Assembly: GCA_008632985.1 (NCBI GenBank)
Contig: QPGO01000013.1
Coordinates: 186,001 to 250,000, forward strand
DNA from: Psammoneis japonica
Taxonomy: Eukaryota
DNA length: 64,000 nt
Direction: 5' to 3'
Below, piece after piece: positions 1 to 31,480 of the stretch (the first letter of the stretch is position 1; each line of letters begins with the position of its first letter). The notes beneath the pieces were generated by a model that was not told the origin of the DNA, did not search any database, and worked only from the letters and a program-made list of their open reading frames with translations. The position numbers and the translations under genes are program-made.

Positions 1-1799
1 CAGGGAAAGCAAATTGACCTGATTTTAAACAAGCAGATCTGTTTCTGCTTGGCACCACAGTGCGCCATCTTTCCACTGCGTGGGCATCTTGGGCACGGCA
101 ATTGTGCCAAGCTGCGCAGATGCACTCACACAAAGTGTCAAACTGGCAAGCCAATTTTGCCAAAAGGGAATCCTGCAAAGCTTCCTGTGCCACTCATTGC
201 ACTTGCCCTGGCTGCTGTGGTGGCTGTGGTTTGCCTGGAAGTTCTCAACAAACTTCAAACTCATGATGCAAAACAGGCACCTGTGCTTGCACATTTTTGC
301 AAACCAGATGATTCACTCCAAAGAGCAAGAACAAAACGCAAAACAGAAGGAAGAGTCATCATTGTGGCGTGCAGCAGGATCTGAATGGGTTCAATGTGCC
401 AGGGGGTTCTCACACCCTTTTGGTTTTTTTGTGCTGTCACACTCAGCTGTGTCCCCACCCATCTTTTCTGGGACTTGTGTTGGAGTTCCAAGGCTTGCCA
501 ACAGATGCACAGCAGTTGGCATTGCTGACCCCAACACAACCTTGCCACACCCTCCTTCAGCAGACCTTCAACAGCTTCTTTGACAGCAAGGCACCCTCCA
601 GAGATTGTTTCTTCACCCTCATCCAGCCAGCTCATTTGCTGCAATCTGCCAAGGAACACCACAAGGCACACCTTTGGGTTCCTGTTGACCTCCTGGTCTG
701 TTTCTTTTGACTCCTGTGTTGACTTCCCAGCCCTCACATCTGTGGATTCCCTTGACTTTCCAGCCCCCGTTCTGTGGATTCATCTTGACTTCTCAGCCCT
801 CAAATGACTCTGCTCTTTTGAGCATTGTGCCACAATGACCAGCACACATTCTGTCTCACCATCTCCCAACTCACTGAATGGCTTGCAAACACATTGGCTT
901 GTGTTGCTGGCTGTTGTCACCATGTCAACCAGGCACAGAAGATGGGAAGCATGCACAAAACCCGCGGCTCAACCCAAGGTTGCACAGCACCGCTGCTCCC
1001 CACAACTGCCCTTTCATTTGGTTGTCACTTGCAAAATTGTGCCTCAAGTGTTCCTTTTGCATGTTTCCAGGCTGGCCATTGTTGGTTTTCCATGGACACA
1101 CTGCCGCCATGCCCTCTCCATTTGTGCCTTGTCAAATGGCATGCTGGAGCACAGATCTTGGCACTGGGGTGCCACAAACAAATTTGCGCTGCCTCCCTTG
1201 GCTTCTTTTTCAAGCAAGGAAACTGGCTCCTGGACTTTTTAGTTTGTGCCTGTTCAACTGTGGCCTCATTTGCACACCAGGGCAAATTTCCAGAAACTCT
1301 CACGAAAACTGCTCTTCAGCAAAAGCACCTGGCACCTCAGATGCATCTCACCTGAAACCCCCAGAACAGCTCCAATGTCTGTCTCTTCTCTTTGTGTCTC
1401 TGAAGGAGACAGGGGTGCTCTGAGGAAACATTCTGGCAATGCTGGCATGCTGGAGGTGATGCCATGGTGGAGGCAGTTTGTGCAGGAAATTTGCCAAAAA
1501 ACTCCACACTTTCAAGAGGTGCTGTGGTGGAGCCAAACGTCACTCAATGACACAAAGTGCAAAATTGTGTGTTTTCAGGTGTGAAGATTTTGTCATGAGG
1601 TCATTTGGGGCTCATGGAGCTGCAACCAAAATGTTTTGTCTTTTTTCAAAATTCTTTTCAGGTGATGCTTGGCACGACTTGAAGACTGGTGCCACCAATT
1701 TTTTGTCAACTCAAACTTCTTTCCTCCCAACAACAACTGGCACTTCTCCATGGGCTCTGGTCACAGCTCATCAAAAGAAGCAAGAAGACTGCTCAACTG

Positions 1800-3944
1800 C
1801 AAGCAGAGAGAATGAAAGCAGGGCTCAGCTTGTCCCTGATGATGATGCCAGGGAGGAACTGGGTGCCACCGCTGTTGTTTTGAGGAGGGAATTCCTTCTG
1901 CAGACTCAGGCAAGAGCACCAGCATCCACAACCACCTCTTGGCTGTTTTGCAAAAGTGTGACATTGATGAAAATGAAAAGCTTGACAAGATGGAACAGGC
2001 CATGTGTAACATGGACAATGGGAACATGGGCTTTTTGAGTGACAAAAAGGTGTGCAAAAGCTCATGCATGAGAAGATGCAAACCCAAAAGGATCTGTGAC
2101 TTGTTGTGTGCATCTGACAAGAGGTTGCATGGAAACACAACAAGCCATTGTTCTTTTGCCACCATGTGATCAGCTCACTCCCACATGACTCACATTTTCT
2201 GTTGTTTCCTTTTTTGACAGCCTGAGTGCCAAGGATCTTGTCCTCTCTTTTTTGGGCTTTGCTCTTCTTCTTGCTGTTGCCGCCATTGTGGCATCCTTTG
2301 CCACCACCAACTTGGCTCAAGAAACTGCAACAAGCAACAATGTCCTTGTCATCAAAGGCACAGATGAGGTTGCAGATGACAGTCATCAAGGCCAACTCTG
2401 TCATGTCATCACTGTGGGGGATTCTTCAAGATGCCAGCTTGCCAACTGTGTGGCGGCAACTGCAGCTCCAGAGGACAGCCTGGGCTGCATGAAACAGCAG
2501 TGTGATGCCTCCAGGTCCATCAACATCATTTGGACATGGGGTGGACATGACACAGAGGAAGCAATTCTGGTCTGCCCAGGCTGTGGTCATGACAAAAGCA
2601 AGGGCATCAACAACTTCCATTTGCACAATGGAAGGTTGCTGGTGGTGGATTGCTGAGGACCCATTGATTGTGGCTTGGGTGGCACTGCTGGATTTCTGCT
2701 TTTGGCGAATGATTTCTCTGTGCACAAGATGCAGATTGCTTGTTCAACACCTGCTCTGGCACACCAGGAAGATGTGTTTGTCCCTGTCCTCCCACAGACA
2801 CCAGCTTGTGTGGCCACAGTGGTCTTCCAGTTTCTTGCAACTGTGGCAACTCCACATGTGAAGACGTCGTTGACTGCATTGCCAACCTTGCTGCCACAGA
2901 TGCTGACATCATGTGGGAGTGTTTGTTGGAGTGGTTTGTGGCAGGCCCTTTGTTGATGGGGAGGGCACACATCTTCAGGCGACTGTTGTCAACACCAACA
3001 GGGTGCCTGCAAGTTGGTCAACCTCATCCTGCTCTGACAGTCATCAGTTGATCAAGACGATTGCCATCACTCATCGTGATCAAGATGCCTGCCTTCACTC
3101 TCTTGCACAAGAGTGGAAAGCATGTGCACTTGGAGAACATGCCTCAGTTGATTTGTTTGCCACCTTCACCCCAGCTCACATGTCCAACAATGCTCCTCCC
3201 AATCTTGTTTGCGATCCCAAAATCACCAGACTGGACAAAGTCTGGCATGATGCAGAAATCTCTTTTTTGCGGTTGCTTCCTCCTTGATGGGACAAAGTGC
3301 AGAGCCAGGACTGTTGCCTCCCTTTGTTCCTGAGTTTGACAATGACCTGATGGCCATGACAATTGCTGCCACTCATGAAGGATGCATCAATGAAGTGCTC
3401 TTGGCCTTGGAGGTGGCCGCTGATGCAAACAAGTGTGAAGACAGCAAGGACAATTTTGTCTTGAAATTGAATCTCAAGGACAAGACCACTGCCAATGCCC
3501 CAGAAGAAGCAACTCATTTGGCTCTGGTGTGATGCACAATCCATTGGGCATGTCATGTGGATCTGAGTGCATGCTCGGCCATTCAAAATGAGAGGTCCTG
3601 GAACCAAGCAAGCTGAAAGCAGTGCATGAGAGGCACTTTCCTGGTTCTGCCCAGCTGGATTTTGAAAATGAGTGGACCAAGATCTGCAAGGCTTTGTTGC
3701 CCTTGTTGGGAAAGAAGGCTCTGAGAACCATTGAAACAACCAAATTCAAGGCATCAGACTGCAAGACCTGGTTTTGACAGTGGTCAACAAGATCATTGTG
3801 GGCATCATGTGCCCAAACAATGACAATGAACAGCTTCTGAATCTGGCAAATCATGCTGCACTCCACCAGCAGAAAGTTTTGGAGTGTGAAGTGGAGGTTG
3901 TGGCTGAACCTTTCATTGGAGTGCTGTTGTTGGCTCACTTGTAA
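1800..3944 (+). pseudogene. Mutated copy of the EF-hand/ferritin-like gene at 27085-29171
   Basis: Fragments such as LAQETATSNNVLVIKGTDEV, WKACALGEHASVDLFATFT and ATHEGCINEVLLALEVAA match the 27-29 kb gene. It has multiple stops and frameshifts, and most substitutions are CG->TG/CA and TA->TG/CA. Confidence 0.92.
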
Positions 3945-5611
3945 AAGGACAGAACAAGGGCGTGGCAGAATCAATCAAGCCACAACAGACCAGGGGTTTG
4001 CCACATTCCATCACACATGCTTTGGGACAGCACAAGATGCAGTTTAGTTCCCAAGAAAATGACAGTGTCTTTGGGTGGAAGCAGGTCTGTCTAAGCCATC
4101 CAGCCACTCCTCCTTGGTCTTGTGGCTGCCACCAACCTGTCCACACCAGCAGCTGTGGTGGAGCTCTGGTGCTGCAAAACTCTCTGCCTGTGAGGGTGGC
4201 TGGTGGTGCTGTTAACATGCTTCCACCAACATGTGAAAATGGCTGTCAGCACTGAGTCCCCTTGCTCACATTGTTGCACTGATGACCAACTCAGTTGTCC
4301 AGGGCTCAAATGGCAGTCCATGTGGTCCCACATGGCAGCTGCAACTGGCGCTGCCTGTTTCTTTGAGATGGCACAGCAGGCAGGCAACATGGCTCAGAGG
4401 TGTGCAAATCATCTGTTGTTGCCTGATGCTGGCTTTGTCATTCATGGCGCAAACAGCTCTGAGTGTGCAAGTGCACGTGTGCAAACAACAACAGATGACA
4501 TGTGCACCTCAGGCATGGCTCTTTTCTGTGAGCAGTGAACTCAACCTCTTGTGGGTGCACCCAAGGACAAACCCTCACAAGCAATGTTGAAATGTTGGCT
4601 GCACTTGGGGTTGCAAGCTGCAGCATTTTGTCCCTGGTGGCATCCTGCCTCCATGATGAGATCTTCAGTGCAGGCATCAAGGTTGTGACACATGATGCTG
4701 TGATGTGTTGCACACCACTGGGTAGTTGGGGCTCAGCACAAAGTTGTTGTGAGCATGGCACACATGCCATTGAGTGAGTGCTGCAACAAGGCAAGCAGTG
4801 TGGCAGCCACCCCCCTGCATTGCATCAGGAGAATCCTCAAGCACCAATGTGTTGGTCAGAAGCAGGCAGCTCTTCTCTTTTCCATGGGTCTGCTGGCACA
4901 ATGCATTGTTGTGGGCAATCTTCTGGGCAGTTGTGTCCAGCACTGTGAGCTCAAGCAAGAGTGGGTCAATTCCTTGAGCAACATCATTGTGCTTGTTGCC
5001 AGCATGGGTGCAAAACTGTGTGCTCACATTTCCAGCAAAACTGGCACACAGACTCAGAAGCTTGCTCATGCAGCTCACTCAGTGCACTCAATCTGCAGCA
5101 TGTTCTTGATCATGCTCTTTGCTCCCCAAATGTGTGGGTTGGTGTCTTGACCAACTCCAAGGCCCTCTGACAATGCCAGGGCATCCAAGCACCCATTGTG
5201 CCATTTGGTTGTCAGGCCACCCTCAGCTGCCAGCACCATGGGGTGTGGACTTGGTGTGGCTGCAGCGGGGTCACAAATGAATCCAGCGGCAGATCCAACC
5301 CTTCACTTTGTGGCGAATGTGCTGGGGGGAAGTTTCGCAGGCACAGCCCAGGCATGGTGAGCTGCTTGCAGGGGTGGCAGCAGATGCACCCAGGCCAGAA
5401 GCTGCAGTCATGCAGGCTGCCTTTGACAAGCAATTTGACAGCAGGGGTGGACATGCAGTGACTGGGTTGGCAGCGGCAGTGGTGTTGCAAACACGAGTGA
5501 GTGCCTGGCTGTTCTTGGATGCAAACTGTGCCAACAGAAGCAGCTGCAAGTGCAGTCTTCTTGGCTGGCTCCAAGGGACAGGTGCAACATGCAGCTGCCA
5601 ATGAGAGCCAA

Positions 5612-6029
5612 TGCATCACGGCGACGTGTTGCAGCCTTTAAATGTCACAAAGGGCGTGACAAAAACAACCTTTTGTCTGCATGCATGCTGCGCTGTGAAT
5701 TCACAGCGGAGTGGTTCATCGCAACCATCAGGCAGGAGGCCAGGGGTTCGAAACCCTGAGTGGGAGTTGTCTGCAGCAACGTTGATCACTGTCGAACGCG
5801 TGAAACTCTGTGCAGTTCTGTGTGTTCCTTCGTGCGTGCCCACACTGTTCCACCAAAACTGTGCAGTGTCAGCACACGTCAGTGAAGAGCCGTGTGGACG
5901 CGTGACACATGGGGAGGAGTGCAACACACAGCCACCAACAAGAGTTGGTGCATCACGGCGACGTGTTGCAGCCTTTAAATGTCACAAAGGGCATGACAAA
6001 AACAACCTTTTGTCTGCATGCATGCTGCA
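5612..6029 (+). mobile_element. Small insertion bounded by 81-bp direct repeats with a tRNA-like (Pol III A/B box) interior; SINE- or TRIM-like
   Basis: Direct repeats at 5612-5692 and 5949-6029 (tgcatcacggcgacgtgttgcagcc...catgctgc). The interior has cagcggagtgg (~5704, A-box-like) and ggttcgaaacc (~5745, B-box). The segment is absent from the paralogous block. Confidence 0.5.
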
Positions 6030-7440
6030 CAGGGGACACCTTTTGTCTGCTGGTGTGCTTGCCACTGCTGGGGAGTGTTGAGAGGACAGAGGCAGTGGTT
6101 GACCCTGTCTTGTTGTCATCCTTGTTGTGTGTCTTGCTCTTGTGCCACTTTCATGATTGGCGCTGACAACACAAGGCTCTTTCTGCACCTTTTTGCAGAA
6201 ATCAAAATGGCAGCAACAGCTGAGGTTGCTGGGGCTCCTCTCATGTGCATGGCTGGGAAACATTTCTTCAGCACACACACGCACATGCGCGCAACAGCAT
6301 CTTGCAGCTGCTGCTTTCCCCAGCCTGGCTCTGCTGTGTGATTGTGCCAGAGCATGCTCTTGATTGAGGTGTGCAGAGGCACAGGAGCAGGCAGTGTGTG
6401 TGTGTGTGGCGGAAACTGCAGAGCACCAGCTTTGCTGGGAATGCTTGCTTCAATCAGCTCTGAGAGGATGCCAGGGGAGTCAGAGAGAGAAGGGAGGGAG
6501 CAAGGTCTCTCTTGCTCCTCCAGCATGCTTGCTGCTCTGTTGTGGTGATGCTGATGATGTGCAGCCAGAGCCGGGGCTGTCATTGGGCTCAAACCTGTCA
6601 GACAATGAAGGCCGTGCATTTGGTTTTGCTTTGACTGCTTTTCTCCAGCACAAAGGAAAGCAGAATGGCGGGCAGTCCCTTGCTGATCTGACAGCTTCCT
6701 CGGAACTGCAGCTCACTGCTGTGGCTCGCATGATGTCGAGTGAATCATCGCACATCGCTCGCAAACAGCCAGAACCCCGCATCACAGGCAGACCGCAGAT
6801 GATGACCACAATTGGATTGTTGGTTCAAATCTGCCAGGGCCTAAATGACAGAGCTTCAAGAGATGACAAGAGTCTTGTGTCTTTTGAGCTCTCGCAATTC
6901 AATTATTGTCATTCATTATTTTGGACATGAGGGTCATTAGCAGGTTATAATTACGACCAAGATAGTCGTAATTGTCAAGACATTATTCATCGAATTATGT
7001 TTTGTATCATAAAGCCAGCTGGCGTCACCCAAGATCAACTTTGTTATTGTTCCTTTTTCTCTGGTTTTAGATGCATGAAAGCACTTATGATAAGAGTCTT
7101 ATGTCGAGATTATTGATATTATGTGAAAAATGGCATTTATGGCACGTTAACATAGAAGAGTCTTATGTCTTTTATTGCTCGTAATTATTGAGTCGGTCAT
7201 TATTTGAGAAAGATTCGATTGCGGTCACAACACACTCTCTAGTAGTAGAGTACGTAGATTCTACGTCTCGTCTTCAGCACTTGAATTTGCTGCCGAACCT
7301 ACGTGTGTGTCGTACATAAAATCGACGTACAGTAAGCCACGTCGTTCCACAGTATCTTTTTACGCAACGCATTGGCTGCTCTTGTGAGGACACAAAAAAG
7401 GCGAGCGTTTTTGAAAAAAGTCATCGTTTTTCAGGTCACC

Positions 7441-10071
7441 ATGAACTTGCGTTGTTTGCCATCAAGCATCCTAGCATGCTCTCTTTTCTTACCAGTTGCT
7501 CTTGGAGCAAACGTCTTTGTAAGTACTGTAGTTCGATCAGAAAAAAGCCATGGAAGTCGACGTTTAACTTAAGGTCTCTCACCCTCATTATTGTTTTGAT
7601 TTTCGCGACAGTCACTTCGAGCAAACCAAAACGCCCGCGGCAACCCCAACGAAGAAACTCACGAGTGTGAGATTAACAAGGTAGCGAGAGACTTTTACGA
7701 GGAAAAGGCACCCGAGCATTTCCTGGCTTGCGAGGACGTTACCACTAAGGAATTCATCGACCTCATCAAGGATCCTCAAGACGATATCCATCTTGCGACT
7801 GGCGACTTTGTTACCGTTACTGGTAAAGTCCTGCCTAAACCGGCTGGTCGCGGAAAGGCCATTGCTGTTTCCAAGTGGGAAAATCATCGCCCGGTCCGTG
7901 GTGGCCCAAAACGTGGCGGCCCAAATCGTGGCGGCCCAAACAACCGACGCAGGTTGGAGAACCCGTACACTGGGATACGGTCTGCTGTCGTTCTCCTCCT
8001 TCGTTTTACGGATGGAGTCGGCGGTTCCGTTTTGGGAGACAAGATGAATACTACGACCAAGGTCGACGGCGTTGCCGCTACTATCAACAACACCTTGTTT
8101 GGTGTATACGATAGGAACGCTCAAAAGACTCACGCAGGCACGTGGGACGAGTGCTCGTACGGTCAATTGGGCCTGGGCTACAACGTGAAACCTAGTGTTC
8201 CAGGCGACTACGACGATGGTACAGCCGACATCTTTTACGTCGATGTTCCGTCTGCTTGTACTTCAGGTAATGGGTACTGTACCAGAACCTTCAACACAGC
8301 GACTTCGTGCGGAACGAACGAGTATTATGGGTGGCCACAATACGCTCTGAACAAACTCGAGGCTGAGGTGCCTGGCTTTTCGCGTTCCGATTATCAACAT
8401 CGTGTAGTCATCTTTGATGATGGGGCACATGTAAACTGCAATTTCGTCGGTATGGGTAACGTTGGGTGTAGCAGTAACTACTGCTACACTTGGATCCCAC
8501 GAAAATATGCGGACAAACATCAGGTATGTCATTTGAACAGGTTTTGTGGTTAGGATTGTTATTCAGTGTGGTGAAACTGACAAAACTGCTTGACTCTTTT
8601 TCTTAAGGATTATACCCATGAACTAGGTTCGTATTGCAATGGACAGAAAAGAAGTTTAATGATGTCACAAAGTACTCACGAGCTAATCACTTTCTTCTAT
8701 TTTATAGGCCACAACATTCATTTGGCGCATGGAGGTAAATTTGGAGTTGGTGGTAACAACGGGGAATATGGCGACCTTTCATGTGCCATGGGATATGCAT
8801 TCTCGGTCCGTTGTTACAATGGCCCGCATGCCTACGAACTAGGCTGGCTTGAAGCCTTGGAATTGGACCATACCACCATTTCAGGGGCGAATCAGTATAC
8901 GCTCAACTCCATGTCGTATACCAGCACAGATTCTCTCATTTCCATCACTGGTGGAGACAATAATGTCTACTGGATTCAATACAAGACCAACCACGCGTAT
9001 GACCAGTTCATGAAGAGTGCTTGGAAAAACAACGTGCAGATCAAGAGATGGAATATGGCAACCTATGAGCGCTCCGACGACATGGGGGTTTTCCTAACCG
9101 CTGGTTCCACCTGGGATATTCCCAATAGTACTGTCACAATCATGGTAGACAGCATCGACACATCTTCGATCGACCCACATGCAATGATTACCATCGCGAG
9201 CGGTACTCCAGCTCCGACTCCAGCGCCAAGTCCTGCTCCAACCGGTACTCCGTCTCAAGCGCCGACTTCCCGTCCGACTACAGCACCGAGTTCCTCCCCA
9301 AGCCAAACTCCAAGTGGAGCCCCAACTGCTTATCCGACGTCTGCTCCGTCTCAAGCGCCGACTTCCGGTCCGACTACAGCACCGAGTTCTTCCCCAAGCC
9401 AAACTCCAAGTGGAGCCCCAACTGCTTATCCGACTTCTGCTCCGTCTCAAGCGCCGACTTCCGGTCCGACTACAGCACCGAGTTCTTCTCCAAGCCAAAC
9501 TCCAAGTGGAGCCCCAACTGCTTATCCGACGTCTGCTCCGTCTCAAGTGCCGACTTCCGGTCCGACTACAGTACCAACTTCTTCCCCGAGCCAAACTCTA
9601 AGTGGAGCGCCAACTGCTTATCCGACGTCTGCTCCGTCGCAAGCGCCGACTTCTGGTCCGACTACAGTACCGACTTCTTCCCCGAGCCAAACTCCAAGTG
9701 GAACCCCAACTGCTTATCCGACGTCTGCTCCGTCTCAAGCGCCGACTTCCGGTCCGACTACAGCACCGAGTTCTTCCCCATCGGCATCTCCCACAGCGTC
9801 TCCAACTCCAGCTCCAACTCAAGCTCCACCGCCAACTCAAGCACCGAGTTCTTCTCCATCGGCATCTCCCACAGCGGGTCCAACTGCAGCTCCGACGGCA
9901 TCTCCCACGCCGGCTCCAACTCCGGCTCCGACTCAAGCTCCACCGCCAACTCCATCGCCCACGCCGGCTCCGACTCCGCCGCCCACGTGTGCTGGTAGGA
10001 ATCAGAATTGTGTGGTGAACAGTGACTGCTGCAACTCCAAAGGTTGCAAGCCGAGTGGAAAATGCTTCTAA
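7441..10071 (+). CDS. Secreted metzincin metalloprotease (gametolysin/M11-like) with Pro/Thr/Ser stalk and C-terminal Cys-knot-like module; 4 exons
   Basis: Signal peptide MNLRCLPSSILACSLFLPVALG. Predicted introns 7519-7611, 8524-8607 and 8627-8707 (GT..AG) give a spliced HELGHNIHLAH zinc motif and a SCAMG Met-turn. An RRRL putative propeptide site is present, and the C-terminus is CAGRNQNCVVNSDCCNSKGCKPSGKCF. Confidence 0.85.
9250..9790 (+). repeat. Coding 96-bp tandem repeat (32 aa PTAYPTSAPSQAPTSGPTTAPSSSPSQTPSGA), about 5.5 copies
   Basis: Near-identical units seen directly in the DNA and in the translation. Confidence 0.92.
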
Positions 10072-21000: not shown

Positions 21001-21296
21001 TCAAATTCGGGCAAGGAGAATTGGATCTTACATCGACTGTCAGTCGTGAAGAGCCCTCCTTTGGTTTCCCAGAGTTTGGTGGCGGATGCTTTTGTTCTGA
21101 GTTTCCGCGTGAATTTGCGCAAAATTATGGTTGATGATGTTCCGCCATCGAGGAGAACGCGCAGAGGCTTATTTTTCGCCTTGCCCAATGAAGTGTTCAC
21201 ATGGGCGACGACTGCTGGACTAGCATGAATTACTTTGGCCCTTTTTCTGGGCTTCCTAACATCCAGCAGAGCATGAGACTCCTCTTGCGGTGCAAG
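18100..21296 (-). pseudogene. pol: Gypsy pol (protease, RT, RNase H, integrase), Tyr-depleted and frameshifted in the integrase
   Basis: LLDGGTSSTI (protease), LPMG and RTCVDD (YxDD mutated), ETCADAS and CTDHKNL (RNase H), CVDLIGP, DRGSEF and NPQANAIIERVH (integrase). Frameshifts near 18730 and 18375. Confidence 0.93.
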
Positions 21297-22451
21297 TCAT
21301 TCCTCGGAATCACTGCGCGTCATTTTTTCAAACTGACAATTTTCCTCGTCAAGGGTGTCAGAATCACAATCTTTGCTCTTGTGTTTTTTATCATTGTTCG
21401 AAGAACTCGCTTTGAGTAATTTTTGAACTGCTTGGATCGCCACAGCATTCAACTCTTCTTTGCGAGCGGCGTCATCGTTGTCGCGACGAGACCACGTGCG
21501 ATTGCCATTTGAACGGCGCCGTTTCGGGTCGGGTTCATGGTTCCCACGGCGTTCTTTCGCAAGTCTTTTGATCGACCAGCACTTGTCCGTGTTATGAGTG
21601 GATTTCTCGCATGAAATGCACCACTTCTTGGACTGAGATTTTTCGGCACCATGTTGGTGACCATTTTTGGAACCACGTTGGGAACCACTCTTGGCTTTTG
21701 ATGCAGTGCCGCCACTGCCATCAGCCTTGGCATGAATGCCATCAAATGTGTCTTCTGCGACCTCTGGGCACTCCAAGAACTCAACCAGCTCGTCACAGGT
21801 ATGTTTCAAAATTTCGAAACCCTGGACGGTCGACTGACGCTGCCACTTTCGAGGTGCAAGGTTGAAGAGGATGTCCTTGAGCTCGTCGTCCTCGATCTTC
21901 TGTTCCTTCCCAAAGGGAGGATAGAACTTGAGGTCTTCGTTGACTTCCTGGACCCAAGCAGCAATTTCGCGTACTTTCATGGACTCCGGCTTCTTGAGAT
22001 CACGGCGCAAATAACGTTTCTGCACCGAAAGTGCGTTCTTGGGAAACACATGCCTCGTGAGATGTTGCAGGCATTTCTCGAAGCTTCCTTCCGCAGATTC
22101 GTCTTCAAGGTTCGCTGCCGCATTCTCGAAAGCACGCAGGGCGTCTCCTTGGAGTAACACACGCATGAGACGAAACTTGTCAGATTGCTTCCTGACATTC
22201 TGGCCCACTGGAAGTTGATCGTAGCTCTTGAGAAATTCGATGAACTTGGGGACACCTTGTTTCTTGTGGCACTCAACATTGATGGTGTAGGTACGGCTAT
22301 CCTTCTTCTCGGGATGAAAACGTTGCTCCATCTTGAGGTGCTGGCTCGGTTTGAGGCTCTTCGGCTCGGAGTTCGATTCCAGCGGTTGAGGGACGATTTT
22401 CTCCTGCCTCAACGAAGTTTTGGCGTTGGTTGCATGAGGTGAAAGCTTCAT
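21297..22451 (-). CDS. gag: Gypsy gag with Cys/His zinc knuckle
   Basis: ORF directly inside the 5' LTR; CISCEKSTHNTDKC knuckle; QKRYLRR..KP..MKVRE gag-like segment. Confidence 0.85.
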   Translation of the reverse strand: MKLSPHATNAKTSLRQEKIVPQPLESNSEPKSLKPSQHLKMEQRFHPEKKDSRTYTINVECHKKQGVPKFIEFLKSYDQLPVGQNVRKQSDKFRLMRVLLQGDALRAFENAAANLEDESAEGSFEKCLQHLTRHVFPKNALSVQKRYLRRDLKKPESMKVREIAAWVQEVNEDLKFYPPFGKEQKIEDDELKDILFNLAPRKWQRQSTVQGFEILKHTCDELVEFLECPEVAEDTFDGIHAKADGSGGTASKAKSGSQRGSKNGHQHGAEKSQSKKWCISCEKSTHNTDKCWSIKRLAKERRGNHEPDPKRRRSNGNRTWSRRDNDDAARKEELNAVAIQAVQKLLKASSSNNDKKHKSKDCDSDTLDEENCQFEKMTRSDSEE

Positions 22452-22487
22452 CTTGAACTTATTACCTTCTGTGGTGTGTATACACAA

Positions 22488-22866
22488 TGCACTATGCTCG
22501 AAGAACGAGTGTAAACGAAAGTAGAATGAAGTTCAAAAGGTGAAAATTATGAGAATCATTTCTGCGCAATCATTTTGGGTTTCTCCGAACGGGTTCTCAA
22601 CAGCCTAAACCTTTTGCACTGCTCCTACAGACAAAAGGCCTTTCGGAGAATATGATCGTGACAACAGATTGTCCGGATACGATTGATATTGACACATAAG
22701 ATGTCAACATCATCGTACGATCGCATTTGCGATTCTCGACATCCGATCACTTCTGTGTGATTGATCTGTACTTCGTACGAACCCACGATTGACGTACGAT
22801 TGAAACACACTTTTATTTAACACATAGATGTGCACATATAGTACGTACATGACAACGCATGTTGCA
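22488..22866 (-). repeat. Gypsy 5' LTR
   Basis: Direct repeat of 17707-18085. Confidence 0.95.
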
Positions 22867-22870: not shown

Positions 22871-25800
22871 CATGCTGACATCTTCTGGAGCCACTTTGTT
22901 TCATCTCACCCCCCATTGAGTGCACAACCTTGAGTCAACAGGCTTGTCATTGTCACATGGTCATTTTTTAGCCACAACAGTGTGTCTGTGCTCCTGCCAG
23001 CTGTGCACCCACTCCAAAGCTTTTGCTGGTGAAAGTTGGCAACATTCCTGCTTCTGCTGTGCACAAGGACAATCAAGCCTGTCTGAAGCATGTGTGACTT
23101 CCCAAGATTTCTCTGCACACCAAACACATTGTCACCCCTGGTGATCTTTCAAAACTTGCATTGAGCCTGATTTTGGAGAACTGAGTCTCAGCTTGTTGCC
23201 AGTCAATTTGCAAAGGTGCTGAGTCTTGTCAAGCTGAAATTGATCAAAAGAGTCCACTTGGCTGGTGAGCTGGTGACTCACTCACACTTGAGAGGGAGAG
23301 TCATCATCATGACATTGTTGCCATTGTCATTGTGCCAGCATCGTCAACTTTGAAAACCAAGATCATTGCTCCAAAAAAGGTCATGTGTGGAGCATGGTTG
23401 CATGCTCAGCAGGAGTGATGAAACAAAGTGGCTTCAGAAGGGCTGTGATTGGAAAGCAATTGTGCTTCAAATGGCCATTTTCAGATCATCTTGATTTTGA
23501 AAATCAACGGTGCTGACCATGCAACAATGACGACAATGATGATGATGACATCTTGGCAATCAGGGATGTGCTCTTTTGCTGCAAACCCCTTCATGCACAG
23601 ATGGAGGCTGTTGGAAAAGACACTCTCCAGAAAAATTCAAAATGCTGGTTGCCAGTTGCCAAAAGCAAGAGAGTGCCCCATGTTGGTGCAGAGACGTGCA
23701 CAACTGGGGGTTGTCTGTGCAAGCATCCTGCACATGAGACCAAGACAGAGCAGAGTGTGATGCTGTGGGAATTGCAGAGCCACAAAAGAAGCCAGAGTGC
23801 CAGCTTGTGTGCCCACATCTACACTTGCTGCTCCAACAACTTTGAGTGCAATGACAAGCTGCAGCAACAATGTGGCAACCCAGCTGCCAATGGTGCCACA
23901 TCTTCATGGAAACCAGGAAACCAGCACAGTCCAGTTTGTTTTCTTTTGTCTCTGCTGGGTCATTCAGAGCACATTGGTCATCCAATGCAATGCCAAGTGC
24001 TGACAACAACAGCAGCAGCAGCCAATGCCATCATGGCAAACACAGTGTGTGCAACTGGGTTCAACACCAAAGAGCACAGTTTGGAAAATTGCCTGGCTTC
24101 ACTTGTTTTGTTGTTGTTTGGACAAGAACAAAGCAAAAAGATGAACAAAAATTCCAGCATGTGAATTGACTGATTTCCTTCCTGCTCTGCTGGTCCAAAC
24201 AAATGAGATGCTGCAAGTCATTGCTGCATGCCCACACCAGTAAATGCCACAGGATGGCCACAACAACACCATGAACAAAGATGGTCAATGTGAAGGACCA
24301 AAGATGTTGACACCTGCGGGTGTCAGAGAGATTCAAAATGGCACCTCAGGAACATGAGTGGGAAGAAATGGTGAAGGTGTCCTGCTGACATTTGTTCTCT
24401 TCTTTCCCCCCCCTGGCTGCTTGCTGTTCAAAAATGATGACTGCTGAAACAAGGTGACAAAAAAGTCCTGTGGCAATCAGCAATGTGCTCAATGCCATGT
24501 GTGGTTCAGTGGGTGATGGGCTTTCATCATGCCTCAACTTTTCTCAAGGACTGCTCAGGGTGTGCTTGCAACCAACAGATCAATCTCTATGTGCTGATGC
24601 TCAAGATTGCAAACACAGGCCAAACCACAAACCCTGACATCCCTTTTTTGCACCCATGGTGAACAAAGTCACATGCAAGCACAAAAAAACATCACTTGCA
24701 ATCTGTCCAAATCAAGGCCTCACTTTTTTCTCTAAAAGAAGAGGGGCAGCTGTCTGCAAAAGCTGCAAAGCACCTTGGGACCCCCCACAATCCAGGGTTC
24801 ATCCTTGCAGTCAAGATGGTTTGCACTCATGAAGTCAAATTTGTGCAAGTGTTCTCAAATGCAATGGCCGCGCTCCCAACTTGTGTGTGGTCATCTTGGG
24901 GGACGTGTCTGGACGGCTGCTGTTGGGACAATCCAGTGCAGGATTTGCACTGGAACAGTCTGTCAATCAGTGTGATTGGGGCATTTGGAAAAACTGTGTG
25001 AATGCTGGACAGATTCTGTGTCTTTTTCATGAGCTTGGGCTTGCTTCTGCTGATGCTTTTCTGCACACATGAAAAACAATGGCAAGAGCAGCCAGTTGCT
25101 GACAGCTTCCTTGGGACTTTTGGTCAGGGGTGGACTGCCTGGTGTGCATGAGGAGTTCATGGGCTGTGTCACAACCTTGGGGCACAATGTGCATGATGAG
25201 TGTTGCAGCAGGGTGGGACTGGGTCATGCAGGTGGGAGAAAAGGCAGGGGTCTGGGAGGTTGGAGATTTGGTGACCATGAGACACAAAACAGAGACTTTT
25301 TGAAGGCGTCATTGTGATGGCGTGGTGGTGTGGTGGGCGAGAAGGCCAAAGCAGGCCATTCATGCATTCTTCCAGGCAGCTGTGCACAGGGCAGCAGAGA
25401 AGACTCCCGAGGGCAAAAGGTTGGCATGGGTGCGTGTGTGTGGTGCAGGCAGCTGGGTGTTGAAACAAAGGACTTGGATGCCCCTGGGGCAGGTGGGGCA
25501 GGGACATGGGGGCAGCTCTGGTTGGCTCCAAAGAGGAGGCAATGGGCAATGCACCCAGGTGCTCCCAAGTGAACATTGGCCAATGGTGCGAGACAGGCAT
25601 CTGCTTGGCTTGCAACAGCTGTGAGAGTTGATCCACGCTGGGTCTCATGACATCTGCTGAACTTCTGCTTGTTGGTGCTCATGTGGTGTGCCTCAGTGAA
25701 AGGGTTGAGATTGGGAGTGGGGGGCAAGCCAGGAGCTGGGAGGGGAGGTTGTTTGGGAATGGCGTTGTCGATGGCTGGGCAGCTGCGACCTGGGCACAGA

Positions 25801-26370
25801 CTTGAGAGGATGGCTTGATGTGGCTGCACCAGCACACCAAATGCACATGACAAGCTCAACAACAGATTGATGGAATGTTCTTGAGTCAGCCCAAAAAATT
25901 TGCAGAGCCATGCCAAACAAAAATGATGGTCAGTGGCACAACAGGAACAACCTGCTGCTGCGTCACTTGAGAGGCTGTTCTTGATGCGCAGGGCACACTC
26001 AGAGAGTTGAAGGAGCTTGACCCAGATTTGGCTTGAAATGGCCAGATGATGATGTTTCAAATTGAAGCACATTGGGGATCACAGGTCAACTCCTTGATGC
26101 ACAAACAGGTGCCAGCTGTGAGAACAGATGTGTTTTGAATCTCGGCGGTGCAGCCGATGACAACCCAAAAATGTGTCGCAAATGATGTCGACAAAATGAC
26201 CTTGACACCTTGACTCTCTTTGCACCTCTGGAGGAGACAGGGGTGCTCTGAGGGAACATTCTGGCAGTGCTGGTGATGACAATGGCGACGCCATGGTGGA
26301 GGCAGTTTGCGCGGGAAAATTTGCGCAAAAAACTCCACACTTGGCGCTGCGGCGGAACCACATGTCACTG
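22871..26370. other. Hypermutated degenerate sequence, origin unrecognised (possibly old TE remnants)
   Basis: TA and CG depleted; Cys/His/Gln-rich spurious ORFs. Confidence 0.6.
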
Positions 26371-26396
26371 TGGATAAAAAAATGTATGCTTTCGGG

Positions 26397-26892
26397 TATA
26401 TCCCTGGTCCGCGCATCGTTGCGCTTTTGTGCAACAGTGCACGATTTTTGGGTCACAGACATTTCCCGGTCATTCTCCACACCGTTGTAGGAAAGTGCAG
26501 CAAGGATTTTATATACATCTATGTCATCGTATGCTATATGAAAATAGCATTTGCATGTCAAATGCCTCATTCGGCATGAAAATCAATATTTAAATAATGG
26601 CGCTCAAATAATATTAACCCTGTAGAATTCTACGTCAATTCCAGTAGAAACCGCGTTGTACTTTTCTGCAACGTGGCGATTTTCACGACCAAAAATGTAT
26701 CCTCTTGCTGTTTGTCATATGAAAGCCACCTCAGGTTGTTTAACACTATCAAACCACCAGACACCATCATTAAAGCCTGCTTTAACTAGTTGGGTCAGGT
26801 CAGGTGTCAAATGACCGGCTTTGTTAATGTTAGCAGCAGCACAAAACCACGTTGTACTTTCGCGCAACGTGAATGCGCGGACCAGGGATATA
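26397..26892. mobile_element. MITE / non-autonomous DNA transposon (~0.5 kb)
   Basis: Perfect 20-bp inverted repeat tatatccctggtccgcgcat (26397-26416) / atgcgcggaccagggatata (26873-26892). Subterminal cgttg..caac motifs, AT-rich non-coding interior, and absent from the paralogous block at ~1545-1600. Confidence 0.8.
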
Positions 26893-27084
26893 GAATTCGT
26901 TTAAAAAGGTCATTTGGGGCTTATCTTTTTTTCAAAAATCTTTTCAGTGACTGCTTGGCGCGACTTCAAGATAGACTGGTGCCGATCTTTCGTCAACTTT
27001 GAACTTCTTTCCTCCCGCCAACTGGTCACTTCTTCATGCTTTCGGTGTGCGGCTCATTAAGAGAAGCAAGAAGACTGTTCGACC

Positions 27085-29171
27085 ATGAGCGAAGAGAAGG
27101 AAAACGGGGTTCAGCTTGCTCCCGACGATGATGCCAGGGAGGAACCGGGTGCGACTATTGTCGAGGAGGGAATTCCTCCTGCAGACTCGGGCAAGAGCAC
27201 CAGCATCCGCAACCGCCTCTCGGCTGTTTCGCGAAAGTACGACATTGACGGCGATGGCAAGCTCGACGAGACGGAACAGGCCATGCGTGACATGGATATT
27301 GAGAACAAGGGCTTTTTGAGCAACGAAATGGTGTACAAGCTCATGCGCGAGCAGATGCAAACCCAAAAGGATCTGTGAGTTGTTGTGTGTATCCGATAAG
27401 AGTTGAATGGAAAGGCATCAGTCATATGATCGACTAACTCTTCTGTTGTTTCCTTTTTTGACAGCCTAAACGCTAAGCGTCTCGTCCTCTTTTTTGGAGG
27501 CTTTGCTCTTCTTCTCGCCGTCGCCACCATCGGAACGTCCTTTGCCGCCGCCAAATTGGCTCAAGAAACTACGACGAGCAACAACGTCCTTGTCGTCAAG
27601 GGCACGGACGAGGTTGTAGCGACCGGTCATCAAGGCAAACTCTATCATATCGTCACTATGGAGGATTCTTCGAGACGCCAGCTTGCCAACTTTACGGTGG
27701 TAGCTACGATTCCGGAGGATGACCTAGATCGCATGAAACAGCAGTGCGATGCCTCCGAATCCGTCAACATCATTCGTACATGGGATGGATACGACGCGGA
27801 AGAAGCAATTCCGGTCTGCCCGGGCAATGGTCATGGCAAAAGCCAGGGCGTCTACAAATTCCATTTGTACAATGGAAGGACGCTGGAGGTGGATTGCCGA
27901 GGACCCGGTGATTGCGACGTGGGCGGCACCGGATTTCTGCTTTCGGTAGGTGATTTCTGTACGCAAGACGCAGATTGCTTGTTCAACACCTGCTCGGGCA
28001 CACCAGGAACATGTTTTTGTCCTCGTCCTCCCGCCGATACCAGCTCATGTAGCAGTGGTCTTCTAGCTTCTTGCATCTACGGCAACTCCGCGTGCGACTA
28101 CGACAATAGCTGCATCGCCAACCTTGCCGCGGCGGATGCTGGCATCGCGTGGGACCATTGCGTTGAAGTGATGTTCGGCAGGCCCTTTGTCGACGGGGAG
28201 GGCGCACATCTCCAGGCGACTGTCGTCGACACCAACAGCACATCTACGAGTTGGTCAACCTCGTCCTACTCTGACAGTCATCAGTTGAGCGAGACGCTCG
28301 CCATCACTAATCGTGAACAAGATGCCTGCCGTCACTCTCTCGGACAAGAGTGGACAGGCCGTGCACTCGGAGAACATGCCTCAGTCGCTTCGTTCGCCGC
28401 CTTCACCCTGGCTCTCATGTCCAACAACGCTCCTCCCGATCTCGTTCGCGATTCCTTGATCGCCGGACTAGACGAAGTCCGGCATGCGGAAACCTCCTTT
28501 GCGGTCGCATCCTCCTTGATGGGACAAAGCGTGGAGCCGGGACCGTTGCCTCCCTCGACTCTTGATTTGGTAACGACCTGACGGCCATGGCAATCGCCAC
28601 CGCTCGTGAAGGATGCGTCGATGAAACGCTCTCGGCCTTGGATTTGGCCGCCGAGGCAAACGAGTACGAAGATGGCAAGGACGATTTCGTTTCGGAATTG
28701 AATCTCAAGGACAAGACCACCACCATTGCCCTAGAGGAAGCAACTCATTCGGCTCTGGCATGGCGCACAATCCGTTGGGTATGTCGCGTGGATCCGAGTG
28801 CGTGCTCAGCCGTTCAAAAGGAGGTCCTAGAACCAAGCAAGCTGAAAGCGGCGTACGAGAGGCGCTTTCCAAGTTCTGCCTCACTCAATTTTGAGAACGA
28901 GTGGACCGAGATTTACGAGGCTTTGTTGCCCTTGCTGGAAAACGAGGCCCAGAACCATTGCAACACCAAGATCAAAGGCGTCGAACCGCAAGACCTGGTT
29001 TCGATGGTGGTCAACAAGATCATCACGGGCGTCATGTGCCCGAACAACGACAGCGAGCAGCTTCCGACTCCGGTAAATCATGCTCCAGTCCACCAGCAGA
29101 ACGCTTTGGAGTGTGAAGCGGAGGCTGCGGTTGAACGTTTCGTTGGAGCGTTGGTGTCGGCTCATTCGTAA
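27085..29171 (+). CDS. EF-hand + transmembrane + Cys-rich + ferritin-like domain protein (one frameshift near 28566)
   Basis: YDIDGDGKLDETE EF-hand-like loop; intron 27375-27464 (GTGAGT..ctaac..ACAG); hydrophobic helix; EHASVASF, DEVRHA, EGCVDET and EEATHSALAW di-iron-type ExxH motifs. The frame changes at ~28566. Confidence 0.75.
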
Positions 29172-29329
29172 AAGGACAGAACGTGGGTGTGGCGGCAGAA
29201 TCAATCAAGCCAAAACAGAAAAGGGGTTTGCCGCATTCTATCACACATGTTTTGACAGTGCGAGTTGTAGTTTAGTTCCTTAAAGAAAAATAGTTTCTTT
29301 GGGTGGAAGTAGGTTTGTCTAAAATGTCT

Positions 29330-31480
29330 AGCCACTCCTCCTCAGTCTTGTGGCCGGCACCAACCTGTCCACACAGGCAGCTACGGTGGAGCTCTGGCTC
29401 TGCAAAACTCTCTGCCTGTGGGGGTGACTGCCCATGCTGTCAACACACCCCACCAACATATGAAAATGGATGTCAGCACTGAGTCCCCTTGCTTGCACTG
29501 TTGTGCTGATGACCCACTCAGTTGTCCAGTGCTCCATGGACACCAGGTCATCCTCAGGGTGGCCTGGTCCATGAGTTCCCACATGGTGGCTGCAACTGGC
29601 AACACATGTGTCCTCAAGATGGCGCTGCAGACACCATGTTGTGCCATTGGCATTCACAGGCAGTGTGGCTGCATCCCAGGACAATTTCTCACAGCATTGA
29701 AATGTTGGCCATGATGGGAGTTGCAAACTGCGGCATTTTGTCTCTCGCACTGTCTTGCCTCCATGATGAGGTCTTCAGTGCAGGCATCAAGGTCGGCACA
29801 TGATGCTGTGATGATGTGATGCACACTGCTGGGTGGTTGGTCATTGGAGCTCACAACACAAAGTTGTGAGTGCAACACACGCCACCAAGTGAGTGCCACA
29901 ACAAGTTGAGTGTGGTGGCTGCCCCTGTCCATTGTCAAGAGGAGCATCAAGCACCACTGTGTTGGCCAGCATTGCACAGCTCTTCTCTTCTTCATGGATC
30001 TGCTGGCACAGTGCATCATTGTGGGCAATCTTCTGGGTGGTTTCATCCAGCACTGTGAGCTCAAGCAAGAGTGGGTTGATTCCTTGAGCAATGCCATCAT
30101 GCTTGTCACCAGCGTGTGGGTGTTGCCAGACTGCGCACTTGCATTTCCAGCAAAACTGGTGCACAGACTCAGAAGCCTGCTCCTGTGGCTCAGTGCATTT
30201 CATCTGCAAGAGCATGTTCTTGATCATGCCCAGATGTGTTGGTTGGTGTCTTGACCAATTCCAAGGCCCTTTGACAATGCCAGGACATCAAAGCACCTCC
30301 ATTGTGCCACTTGGCTGTCATGCCATCCTGAACTGCTTTTGCCATGGGAGATGGACTTGGCATGGATCAGCTGCAGTGGGGTCACAAATTGATTCAGTTG
30401 GAGATCCAGCCCCTCACCTTGTGGCAACTGTGCTGGAGGGAAGTGTCAGGGGAAGAGGGAATGGGCACATTGAGCCACTTGCAGGGGCGGTGGCAGATGC
30501 ACCCAGATCTGAGGCTGCAGCCATGCAGGCTGCCCTCTTGACAAGCAACTCCACAGGGGCGGACATGCAGTGAGTTGGTTGGCTGCAGCAACAGTGCTGT
30601 GAACACAGGTGAGCACCTGGTTGTTGGGTGTGAGCAGTGCCAAGCAACAAAAGCAGCTGCAAGCGCTGCCTTTGGCTGCTTGCAGCTGCTGGGGAGTGCA
30701 AGGACAGAGGCAGTGGTTGACCCCATCTTGTTGTTGCCCTGGCTGTGCATCTTGCTGCTGCTGCTGCGCTGCTCTCATGATTTGTGCTGGCCATGCAAGG
30801 CTCTTTCTGTGATTTTTTGCAGAAACCAGCCATGATGACGGCGATGACTGAGGTTGCTGGCGGGGCTCTGCTCACAATGTGCATGAGGCGCACATTTCTT
30901 TTCACACATGCACACACACATGCACAACAGTGTGCCACAGCTGCCACTCTCTCCAGCCTGGCTCTGCTGTGTCATTGTGCCAGAGCATGCTCTTGATTGA
31001 AGAGGTGCACAAAGGCAGGTGTGTGTGGTTGAAACTGCGCACACACATCAGCAGCAGTTTCGCTGGGAGTGCTCATTTTAATCAACTGCAAGGTCACCAG
31101 GGAAGTCTCAGAGGGGGGAGAGAACAAACTCTCTCTTGCTCCTCTAGCATGCTGCTGCTCTGTTTTGCTCACAGAGAGAAGATGATGCCACCACAACGCA
31201 CCAGCACCACGGCAATGATGATGCATTCACAGCTGGAGCTCCCTCTCATTGGGCTCAAACCTGTCAGATGTCAAAGATTGTGAGCTTGGTTTTGCTTCGA
31301 CTGCTTTTCTCCAGCATAAAAATGGAATGGCAGGTGGTCGCTGGCTGCGATCTGACAGCTTCCTCGGGACTGCAGCTCTCTGTCACTTGCATTTTGTCGA
31401 ATGGATCATGATGTCACATGCCAATGTCCCCAGCTAGCAGCGAACAGCCAGAACCGCATGCATCACAGGCAGACCGCAGA
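29330..31480. other. Hypermutated block paralogous to ~4090-6800
   Basis: Collinear similarity; both copies are TA and CG depleted. Confidence 0.85.

Follow-up and report, generated by a model that had tools for sequence, protein, structure and literature searches.

Why should one copy of a duplicated gene be worn away by mutation at two kinds of dinucleotide step while its twin stays intact between flanks that are themselves mutated? The question is raised by a locus of the diatom Psammoneis japonica in a stretch of 64,000 nucleotides of contig QPGO01000013.1 (hereafter the window). So far, the only measurement of a mutation process acting at TpA comes from a rhizarian alga, where the process was interpreted as antiviral; the present locus, in a distant lineage, is a natural experiment that lets before and after be compared.

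Two copies of a host gene

Self-BLAST revealed two collinear duplicate blocks on the forward strand, block A (1387-6802) and block B (26215-31483), spaced by about 25 kb, which agrees with the collinearity of ~1390-6800 and ~26215-31480 described in an earlier note made from the sequence alone. The matching pairs are 1387-1544/26215-26369, 1641-4307/26927-29534 (79%), 4316-4382/29567-29633, 4550-5567/29664-30678 and 6056-6802/30677-31483; block B was delimited by self-BLAST and alignment. Block A sits within a TA/CG-erased domain of 16 kb, the left edge of which lies about 9.5 kb outside the window, and 8 TA remain over its full length. Neither copy is an assembly artefact, since an A-like version with an identical gap pattern occurs on an independent X1 contig (record 3, 4367 bases) and X1 contigs cover the flanks of B with few differing letters. 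Eight listed differences between X1 and the window were examined in B's erased flanks, and six of them fall at CG/TA-versus-TG/CA steps; alleles, strain differences or errors could equally account for them.

Copy B is intact and spliced. Its gene (27085-29171, forward strand, about 665 codons) has a first exon at 27085-27374 and a GT..AG intron at 27375-27464, which is skipped by one X2 contig; X2 is recorded as 'DNA?' and was taken as cDNA solely on account of this splicing. The listed X2/X3 pieces over the gene span 27049-29239. A one-base deletion at 28565-28566 (forward strand) is an assembly error, the extra base being present in both covering X1 contigs and in copy A, and the notion that B is a pseudogene owing to a frameshift after 28565 is ruled out by these X1 contigs, which lack the frameshift. 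The encoded protein comprises an EF-hand-like N-terminus, a hydrophobic segment, a Cys-rich part and a C-terminal domain that is probably ferritin-like (di-iron). With the structural model of a homologue, Foldseek found an R2-like ligand-binding oxidase at a probability of 0.99 but with an E-value of 0.17, so the fold is given here as probable rather than proven. Neither Pfam nor NCBIfam names a family for the main domain, the Atlas matches are all below 0.9, and an exact database look-up of two proteins gave no match for either. Gene B, which has 3427 library relatives, is an ordinary conserved host gene with an intron and not a transposon.

The possibility, considered in the earlier note, that the intact gene is a recent insertion or a conversion from elsewhere was not borne out: B and its flanks are collinear, and homologues of the sequences both upstream and downstream of it occur in A. 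A count of further family copies yielded no third copy at the DNA level among 2 candidates (a lower-bound search), and the only other match at the protein level lies on C11 and has 41% identity. Conversion of B from a third copy is ruled out to the extent of these lower-bound searches, in which none was found.

Copy A (1799-3944, forward strand; delimited by the indel list and codon alignment) has lost its start codon and carries 3 codon-aligned stops and 7 frame-shifting indels. The intron ends are still recognisable, which identifies it as an unprocessed copy. At 80% likeness no A-like pieces over the gene were present in the X2/X3 contigs and one was present in X1; this lack is not counted as evidence of A's silence. 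Block A also contains an insert that is absent from B (5582-6030, forward strand), a high-copy repeat of 450 bases with direct repeats of 110 bases, in which CG is largely kept (21) and 2 TA are left.

Spectrum and direction of the changes

The gene region contains 52 TA and 186 CG in B, whereas 3 TA and 15 CG are present in copy A. Read from B to A, TG or CA has replaced 162 of 185 CG (89 TG, 73 CA) and 41 of 52 TA (21 TG, 20 CA), and both classes are shared evenly by the two strands. The description of the gene at 1800-3944 as saturated with TA and CG changes thus holds, and both codon examples quoted for it are present in the alignment. Transitions in other contexts amount to 5-8% (7-8% at TpC, TpG and TpT), AA steps changed no more than other non-TA contexts, and of 164 CA sites in B, 136 are unchanged in A and none has become TA. 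Outside YR steps, the copies differ by transitions at 21 of 308 synonymous sites and at 53 of 724 non-synonymous ones, which indicates that no purifying selection separates the copies there.

The changes were polarised with homologues that had been found via B's protein and aligned to it, a set biased towards B and consisting of 5-7 sequences for the N-terminal half; in this set B's state is shared at 148 of the 156 decided codons (148:8), and for TA-containing codons the ratio is 24:1 for B. This agreement implies one-sided damage. The asymmetry proposed earlier accordingly survived polarisation, and its companion claim, that the process acts on non-transposon gene duplicates, is confirmed by the dead copy being a copy of a host gene.

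Erasure of this kind is not confined to the locus. In a genome sample of 314 kb it affects 226 of 628 scanned windows (about one third), in blocks of up to 16 kb. In erased windows the observed/expected ratio of TA is 0.04 and that of CA and TG 1.8, CG stands at 0.26 vs 0.97, GC content is unchanged (0.486 vs 0.474) and AA steps are not depleted (1.19 vs 1.14).

The protected island

The earlier note had called the paralogue at ~26400-29330 unmutated. The retention of TA and CG was confirmed, whereas the gene itself occupies 27085-29171 and the stretch 26401-26888 is a MITE-like element. The island proper (26893-29330, forward strand) includes the upstream region, exons, intron and 3' region. 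TA is dense at 26375-29329, with last isolated occurrences at 29382 and 29459, and the island ends 100-200 bp past the transcript. At the left edge CG returns gradually from ~26140 and TA only from 26375. Both flanks are indeed mutated, with 4 TA and 28 CG at 23000-26290 and 2 TA and 20 CG at 29470-31300. The erased left flank (23000-26370) consists of degenerate dispersed repeats, only 26215-26400 being common to A. The erased right flank (29331-31483) exists in two copies only, those of A and B; none of its 26 reading frames scored above the Pfam cut-off and it had no match among the fetched loci. Its erasure ends about 60 bases short of the next gene's first X2 contig (31566).

It is hardly credible that a mutator acts everywhere and that protein selection alone cleans B, conserved and intact as the gene is. 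Of its coding TA and CG, 178 of 212 have a synonymous way out (28 of 40 TA, 150 of 172 CG), another 31 (16 TA, 15 CG) are kept in non-coding parts of the island, and divergence within the island is no faster at non-coding sites than in the exons (11 of 190 vs 63 of 972). Selection or transcription had both been suggested earlier as protecting one copy; protein selection is insufficient, and a shield bound to the transcription unit fits.

Divergence in the flanks, where erasure affected both lineages, is about double that of the island: 99 of 900 sites differ there, and repeating the count on BLAST alignments gave transitions at 68 of 1114 island sites vs 74 of 656 in flanks. Transversions show no such doubling (30 of 1114 vs 21 of 656 in flanks). 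The discordance at CA/TG steps of the flanks (64 of 431 and 49 of 305) lies between two simulated histories, nearer to, or midway towards, erasure before duplication (0.086) as compared to the other history (0.245). This leaning suggests that the ancestor was already an island and that B's flanks were partly erased prior to duplication. Contrary to what had been supposed, the mutated flanks of B therefore probably do not belong to the duplication event.

The upstream element and the order of loss

The B-only element at 26401-26888 has perfect 16-base terminal inverted repeats with TATA on both sides, and retains 30 TA and 23 CG. The corresponding empty site in A (1580-1583, forward strand) reads directly as TGTG where B has TATA. 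The difference is not read as a promoter deletion in A, as the 490 extra bases of B form a dispersed element that ends in inverted repeats; its gain by B or its clean removal from A would leave the same trace. The element matches once within the window, and among the 30 genomic matches listed 7 more are near full length.

These copies give the order of loss. Copy L021 has lost 25 of 28 TA and 1 of 23 CG, with other transitions at 6 of 385 sites, and copy L027 has lost 23 of 27 TA and 16 of 23 CG. The A-only insert and 11 other copies of that repeat have 19-26 CG but 1-6 TA, and an LTR pair differs at 15 positions, all of them transitions at TA or CA/TG steps. TA loss precedes CG loss.

Might the element itself be the shield, acting as promoter or boundary, so that A, which lacks it, was silenced and erased and the MITE picked the surviving twin? 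It stands 160 bases before the first transcript piece, has no counterpart in A and carries 3 private background changes per 490 bases, close to the change inferred for the B lineage since duplication (<1%). Three other copies (L020, L023 and L024) have kept much TA in patches of 600-900 bases within erased DNA, at which no genes were shown; youth or the MITE itself can also yield such an unerased patch. Conversely, at least four other copies are erased themselves, two nearby genes (at 7.5 kb and 31.7 kb) are shielded as well, the element being matched once in the window, and insertion before or after duplication would fit in either order. We consider this role unlikely, and it would be compatible with a shield bound to the transcription unit, as its trigger.

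Alternatively, homology could be the trigger, as in RIP: both copies would have been hit, haplotypes carrying a damaged B would have been eliminated and undamaged B alleles restored by recombination, until the similarity of A dropped below ~80%. The copies are linked, in direct orientation and today 79% alike, homology and erasure stop together on the right in both, and repeats are present in erased domains. Nevertheless this is very unlikely, because the shield tracks the transcription unit rather than the ends of the duplication, the many-copy MITE of B still has its 30 TA (although three other copies, which may be young, are partly spared too), the two-copy right flank appears to have been partly erased before a second copy existed, and the erasure of A reached near completion. 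The target in Bigelowiella natans, moreover, is single-copy (bioRxiv 10.64898/2026.01.13.699255, main text).

Sequence context and candidate enzymes

Among the TA that persist in erased windows, TTAA is 4.5-fold over-represented and ATAT occurs at 0.05-fold. Where the two strands of a TA step compete within the gene, the edited A is the one with a 3' pyrimidine in 17 of 20 cases. The edited A thus prefers a 3' pyrimidine, and in erased windows T in the following position ranks no lower than C. The genome contains TadA-like and ADAT2-like loci and two with an ADAT1/ADAR domain; this set looks ordinary, with no expansion or chromatin-reading fusion seen and no member marked as a DNA editor. The C5-methyltransferase family has 27 matches, assigned at family level only. 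Editing of A and modification of the paired T would leave the same trace in sequence.

The same targeting could operate with other chemistry: an error-prone polymerase might act when deaminated 5-methylcytosine is repaired, or TpA might carry a modified T or A that mispairs or deaminates. WA is the motif of the pol eta-like error-prone polymerase. Both arms occur in the same domains, background transitions are elevated in erased DNA and a dedicated deaminase was not seen. Against the polymerase stand the undepleted AA steps, which change as other non-TA contexts do, and TA being gone where CG is still intact, so that TA loss is not a by-product of CG repair. Taken together we regard other chemistry as distinctly unlikely, its modified-base version being possible.

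Proposed mechanism and implications

The explanation we favour, as a probable one, combines a TpA-specific A-to-G process gated by position or silence with CpG decay, acting on a duplicated host-gene island of which B was shielded. An ordinary host gene would have been an island already within partly erased DNA of transposon relics, and a 5-kb block of gene and flanks would have been copied to a place 25 kb away. Copy A would have lost its function at or soon after duplication and been drawn into a silent domain. There a fast process on both strands would convert the A of TpA to G (TA to TG or CA), at the highest rate with a pyrimidine after A and the lowest with A after A, followed by a slower one converting CG to TG or CA, also on both strands. 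The shield on copy B would cover the transcription unit and 100-200 bases more, whether the sequence is coding or non-coding, with targeting by position or silent state and not by possession of a twin. We infer that transcription or open chromatin provides the shield, that in the TA arm a TadA/ADAT-type enzyme deaminates adenines in DNA, and that the CG arm results when 5-methylcytosine of the DNMT5 type is deaminated.

The one-sidedness of the erasure points to silent DNA, rather than repeats as such, as the target of the mutation process. At this locus neither foreign or host origin nor copy number appears to be what is read, the edge of the shield tracks the transcription unit, and TA goes before CG. 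If this is true, genes in such genomes age far more slowly than silent DNA, with consequences for the dating of transposons and duplications, the fate of gene duplicates and the stability of transgenes, and the 3' preference would be a fingerprint for finding a natural DNA adenine deaminase. To our knowledge, DNA adenine deaminase activity is mostly known from engineered editors. More tentatively, and with less than even confidence, this diatom lineage may have a natural DNA adenine editor that prefers TA before a pyrimidine, is directed by silent chromatin to whatever DNA is untranscribed, including the cell's own gene copies, and is halted within about one nucleosome of a transcription unit. 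Such an editor would make silencing permanent in short evolutionary time, decide the surviving twin and destroy the TA target sites of TA-inserting transposons, and the promoter MITE may have tipped the outcome.

Comparison with known systems

RIP produces C-to-T changes, makes TpA from CpA and lowers GC; it requires a RID/DNMT4-type methyltransferase and is premeiotic. The erasure described here resembles it in being regional, transition-only and dinucleotide-specific, in destroying repeats and duplicated genes and in giving a two-compartment genome. In contrast to RIP, CpA/TpG is the end product here, TpA is consumed, GC is unchanged and CA of B never becomes TA (136 of 164 kept); and whereas RIP mutates both linked copies, one was spared here (148 vs 8 codons), with 52 TA and 186 CG left in B. 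The comparison drawn earlier is thus a loose analogy, since dinucleotides and direction differ and a homology trigger is not evident. RIP of filamentous ascomycetes is also described as leaking into single-copy genes (PMC3105345).

Deamination of 5-methylcytosine leads to CpG decay. The 89 TG and 73 CA formed from 185 CG on both strands, and a CG ratio of 0.26 vs 0.97, are as expected of such decay. In Phaeodactylum tricornutum, DNMT5 is described as placing CG methylation on transposons (PMC9998398), and in the present genome CG likewise goes to TG/CA in transposon-rich silent regions and genes are spared. However, this explains the CG arm only, the TA arm being faster and first.

TadA-derived base editors are described as converting A to G in DNA preferentially where T precedes and C follows, and as disfavouring a following A (PMC8989541). 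The preceding T, the raising effect of a following C and the lowering effect of a following A are shared with the present process, in which a following T ranks no lower than C; these enzymes are engineered, and the likeness is one of context only.

For a TpA process in diatoms no report was found in the literature, subscription journals aside. The closest system is the TpA-restricted A:T-to-G:C hypermutation of B. natans (Mettrop et al., bioRxiv 10.64898/2026.01.13.699255). According to its main text, only TpA is edited, in a single-copy, silent region; the rate is raised ~1000-fold in mutation-accumulation lines; integrated NCLDV and virophage DNA is targeted, which is taken as defence against foreign DNA; and an ADAT2/3-like (ADAT-type) enzyme is proposed. 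A term search of that main text did not return the words CpG, diatom or pseudogene, nor was a 3' context preference like the present one found reported there, the supplementary mutation flanks, which may bear on novelty, aside. Both systems turn TpA into TpG/CpA on both strands (here 41 of 52 TA vs 7-8% at TpC, TpG and TpT) and leave TpA-poor regional clusters in which CpA/TpG is abundant (0.04 and 1.8, in 226 of 628 windows). Whereas the rate was measured in B. natans, the present locus gives a relative footprint near saturation. Unlike the foreign or viral DNA of B. natans, the target here is a copy of an intron-bearing host gene with flanks that are repeat relics or match no family, and TpA loss is paired with CpG loss.

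Duplicated blocks and loss of one gene copy

Self-comparison of the window (G000:C14:186001-250000, in an assembly of 597 contigs and 91 Mb) joined block A (1387-6802) to block B (26215-31483) by five collinear alignments. Block B contains a live gene of ca. 665 residues (27085-29171) with a 90-base GT..AG intron (27375-27464), which is skipped by a contig of X2, a separate sequence run read as cDNA because it is spliced. An apparent frameshift after 28565 is missing at that place from both contigs of another run, X1. The copy in A retains the intron ends, has lost the start codon and contains 3 codon-aligned stops and 7 frame-shifting indels. An X1 contig and the window differ by 7 gap letters at 26859-29875, so the assembly contains small indel errors, and part of the frameshifts counted in A may be such errors as well.

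In the gene region, with B as reference, CG has become TG or CA in A at 162 of 185 steps (89:73) and TA at 41 of 52 (21:20), a rewriting that we call erasure. The TG and CA outcomes are evenly split for both arms, and transitions in the six remaining pyrimidine contexts amount to 5-8%. TA and CG are as scarce in the flanks of B as in A. The pattern was not made by the assembler, because X1 holds a separate contig for an A-like copy and contigs over the flanks of B. The collinear blocks, the gene copy saturated with TA and CG changes and the mutated flanks around a spared gene, all described in the earlier note, are thus borne out, as is action on a non-transposon duplicate, copy A being an intron-bearing host-gene copy. 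This is a real, clear case of a host-gene duplicate destroyed on one side by a regional mutation process acting on TA and then on CG.

The gene product has an EF-hand-like start (domain search, below cut-off), followed by a hydrophobic stretch and a Cys-rich part. Next comes a conserved domain, which has invariant Glu and His residues and 3427 library relatives. This domain is probably ferritin-like, since R2-like ligand-binding oxidases are the nearest structures to the model of a homologue (pLDDT 86; probability 0.99, E 0.17). Other organisms have the N-terminal half on its own, lacking the ferritin-like domain (P0007, P0059, P0097), and that domain is in turn found behind many different N-termini; the protein is therefore a modular fusion.

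Changes were polarised at differing codons with at least five aligned homologues. The homologues, which were retrieved with B's protein and hence are biased towards B, sided with B's residue 148 times and with that of A 8 times (42 ties); where a codon had changed at a TA step, the ratio was 24:1. In a second aligned piece many A residues were seen in none of the homologues. No third copy at the DNA level was found in the genome (two candidates examined), and the next family member, on contig C11, shows 38-42% identity and is located outside erased DNA. Symmetric change after polarisation and a recent insertion or conversion of B, the two outcomes that would have spoken against asymmetric destruction, are contradicted by the 148:8 ratio and by a search that found no third copy.

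Private insertions and the order of TA and CG loss

Both copies carry a private insertion, two in total. The one in B, at 26401-26888, is a 488-base MITE whose inverted ends match perfectly over 16 bases and which has TATA at either border, where A's empty site has TGTG. The unmutated island proposed at ca. 26400-29330 therefore consists of transposon over its left 500 bases. Among 30 genome matches listed, 7 others are near full length (76-95% identity). The insertion in A (5582-6030) is a high-copy element of 450 bases bounded by direct repeats of 110 bases; a first look gave 323 candidates in the genome, and all 12 copies read have erased surroundings.

The MITE of B was compared with ten further copies. 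Locus L021 has lost 25/28 TA, 1/23 CG and 6/385 other sites. TA and CG losses are 24/28 and 5/23 in L022, 26/29 and 6/23 in L025, 24/27 and 8/16 in L026, 23/27 and 16/23 in L027, and 16/20 and 11/15 in L028. L020 is part-way for TA (11/28), L023 and L024 keep most TA (19/28 and 18/24), and L031 is too divergent to be read. In the A-only insert and the 11 relatives of it that were fetched, 19-26 CG remain but just 1-6 TA. A Gypsy-type retrotransposon at 17707-22866 has long open frames for RT, RNase H and an integrase zinc finger. Its LTRs, 379 bases each, show 15 differences, every one of them a transition at a TA or CA/TG step. From these three sources it follows that TA loss comes first and is independent of CG loss.

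L020 (1-3493), L021 and L022 share one MITE insertion within a larger repeated block (95-98% over 1-2.5 kb); TA around the MITE is retained in L020 and gone from the other two, which makes this set asymmetric as well. In L023 and L024 the TA-keeping patches around the MITE measure 600-900 bases, with erased DNA on all sides. An 860-base tandem duplication at 13981-15700 is 96% alike; of the 31 differences, 28 fall at CG, TA or CA/TG steps. A portion of this duplication is found again at 11361-11639 and in L018, and in inverted orientation at 63191-63516. At 49800-52500 a further partly erased patch lies among genes, with TA lost (o/e 0.04-0.23) and most CG retained (0.6-0.7).

Shielding of the live copy

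Selection or transcription had been suggested as the shield. Within the island (26893-29330), a silent change is available for 28 of the 40 coding TA and for 150 of the 172 coding CG, and the non-coding parts retain 16 TA and 15 CG; protein selection alone is therefore not the shield. The shield does match the transcript pieces: those listed from X2 and a third run, X3, span 27049-29239, and TA is dense over 26375-29329, with strays up to 29459. Leaving the MITE aside, the shield extends ca. 180 bases upstream and 90-220 bases downstream of these pieces. At the next gene TA returns at 31509, 57 bases ahead of its X2 contig. The edge of CG loss is longer and more gradual than that of TA loss.

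Outside pyrimidine-purine steps, transitions were found at 53/724 non-synonymous and 21/308 synonymous sites, the pattern to be expected if almost all substitutions arose in A and were neutral there. Differences outside these steps numbered 11/190 in the upstream, intron and 3' regions, 63/972 in exons and 99/900 in flanks, the flanks here being DNA erased in both lineages; a second aligner gave the same contrast (island 68/1114, flanks 74/656). This suggests that 5-6% extra transitions were gathered per erased lineage and less than 1% in B's island, although transversions rise little in the flanks (30/1114 vs 21/656), which counts against this picture.

It appears reasonably probable that position or silent state directs the process and that transcription keeps it off B. 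That the MITE supplies the shield seems unlikely. L020, L023 and L024 also lie in small TA-keeping patches within erased DNA that are not explained by a gene, and the element may be young there or self-shielding. The private background changes (3 in B's MITE, 3 in the erased L021, 0 in L022) fit protection of B's MITE by position.

Between two erased domains, 7540-10070 is an unerased gene island encoding a gametolysin-like peptidase. Its 96-base Pro/Thr repeats keep TA and CG and differ by both transitions and transversions, so repeats inside a live gene escape erasure. The window genes are intron-poor; others encode phosphoglycerate kinase (37586-38830), a MIF4G/MA3 protein (39210-42350), a Fea1-family low-iron(-inducible) protein (47164-49482), a ubiquitin/ubiquilin-like protein (57471-58388) and hybrid histidine kinase pieces (59997-62939). 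The peptidase, the low-iron protein and the scarcity of introns are in line with a diatom.

Timing of flank erasure

TA and CG steps present at duplication resolve independently in the two copies, with CA versus TG disagreement in half. In the gene, disagreement (19/293) equals the background transition rate, only A having changed there. In the flanks it is 64/431 (49/305 for the core by BLAST). A simple calculation predicts 0.11 for erasure before duplication and 0.28 for erasure after it, and simulation 0.086 and 0.245. The observed 0.15-0.16 rejects erasure wholly after duplication and exceeds the expectation for erasure completed before it; roughly one tenth to one half of flank erasure postdates the duplication. 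The ancestor therefore already formed an island within DNA that was partly erased, and the data do not support assigning the mutated flanks of B to the duplication event as such. A genome search found the right flank in these two copies only, so its erasure was under way while it was apparently single. A homology trigger combined with survivor bias is improbable.

Context of TA changes and candidate enzymes

In C14:146001-460000, TA o/e is below 0.1 in 226 of 628 windows of 500 bases. These windows have CA and TG raised to 1.8, no depletion of AA and the same GC content. Their surviving TA (n=527) is enriched in TTAA (4.5) and CTAA (2.8), with ATAC (0.12) and ATAT (0.05) near-absent. By a fit made by hand, the ten tetranucleotide values agree with a product of two strand terms ranking T, C, G, A. 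The strand with the 3' pyrimidine was the changed one at 17 of 20 informative gene sites and, with six MITE copies added, at 45 of 69 sites that are not fully independent. Because of this strand competition the bias is assigned to the base that follows the edited A on its 3' side; an equivalent rule may act on the paired T. The TadA-derived editors described in PMC8989541 favour an A with T before it and C after it, and disfavour one with another A after it. The context of the TA arm resembles this, as a resemblance only. A different chemistry for this arm is quite unlikely.

Deaminase loci in the genome, labelled partly by eye from motifs, comprise one TadA-like, one ADAT2-like, two dCMP-deaminase-like, two ADAT1/ADAR-domain and one deaminase-oxygenase fusion. 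Among these and the many C5-methyltransferase matches no outstanding candidate was seen. The ADAT1/ADAR-domain genes (L088, G000:C40; L089, G000:C79) are separate, and the frames read showed no RNA- or chromatin-binding domain. In L057 (316-1791) the deaminase domain is fused to an apparent 2-oxoglutarate oxygenase (label read by eye). The dCMP-deaminase-like matches L055 (G000:C41) and L056 (G000:C317) score equally and are a duplicate or a second haplotype.

Comparison with known systems

The CG arm fits DNMT5-type methylation of transposons, described for diatoms (PMC9998398). Deamination of the methylated CG would be the step that follows. TpA hypermutation in Bigelowiella natans is the match for the TA arm; it was studied on viral and other foreign DNA in a preprint whose main text does not mention CpG, diatoms or pseudogenes (bioRxiv 10.64898/2026.01.13.699255). 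The earlier note had contrasted the asymmetry with RIP, and this holds; RIP fails on substrate and direction too. Leakage of RIP shows only that it can reach single-copy neighbours (PMC3105345). The literature searches made listed no report of such erasure in diatoms. The present locus contributes a whole pair with its flanks, the match between shield and transcripts, a dating of flank erasure and the 3' rule.
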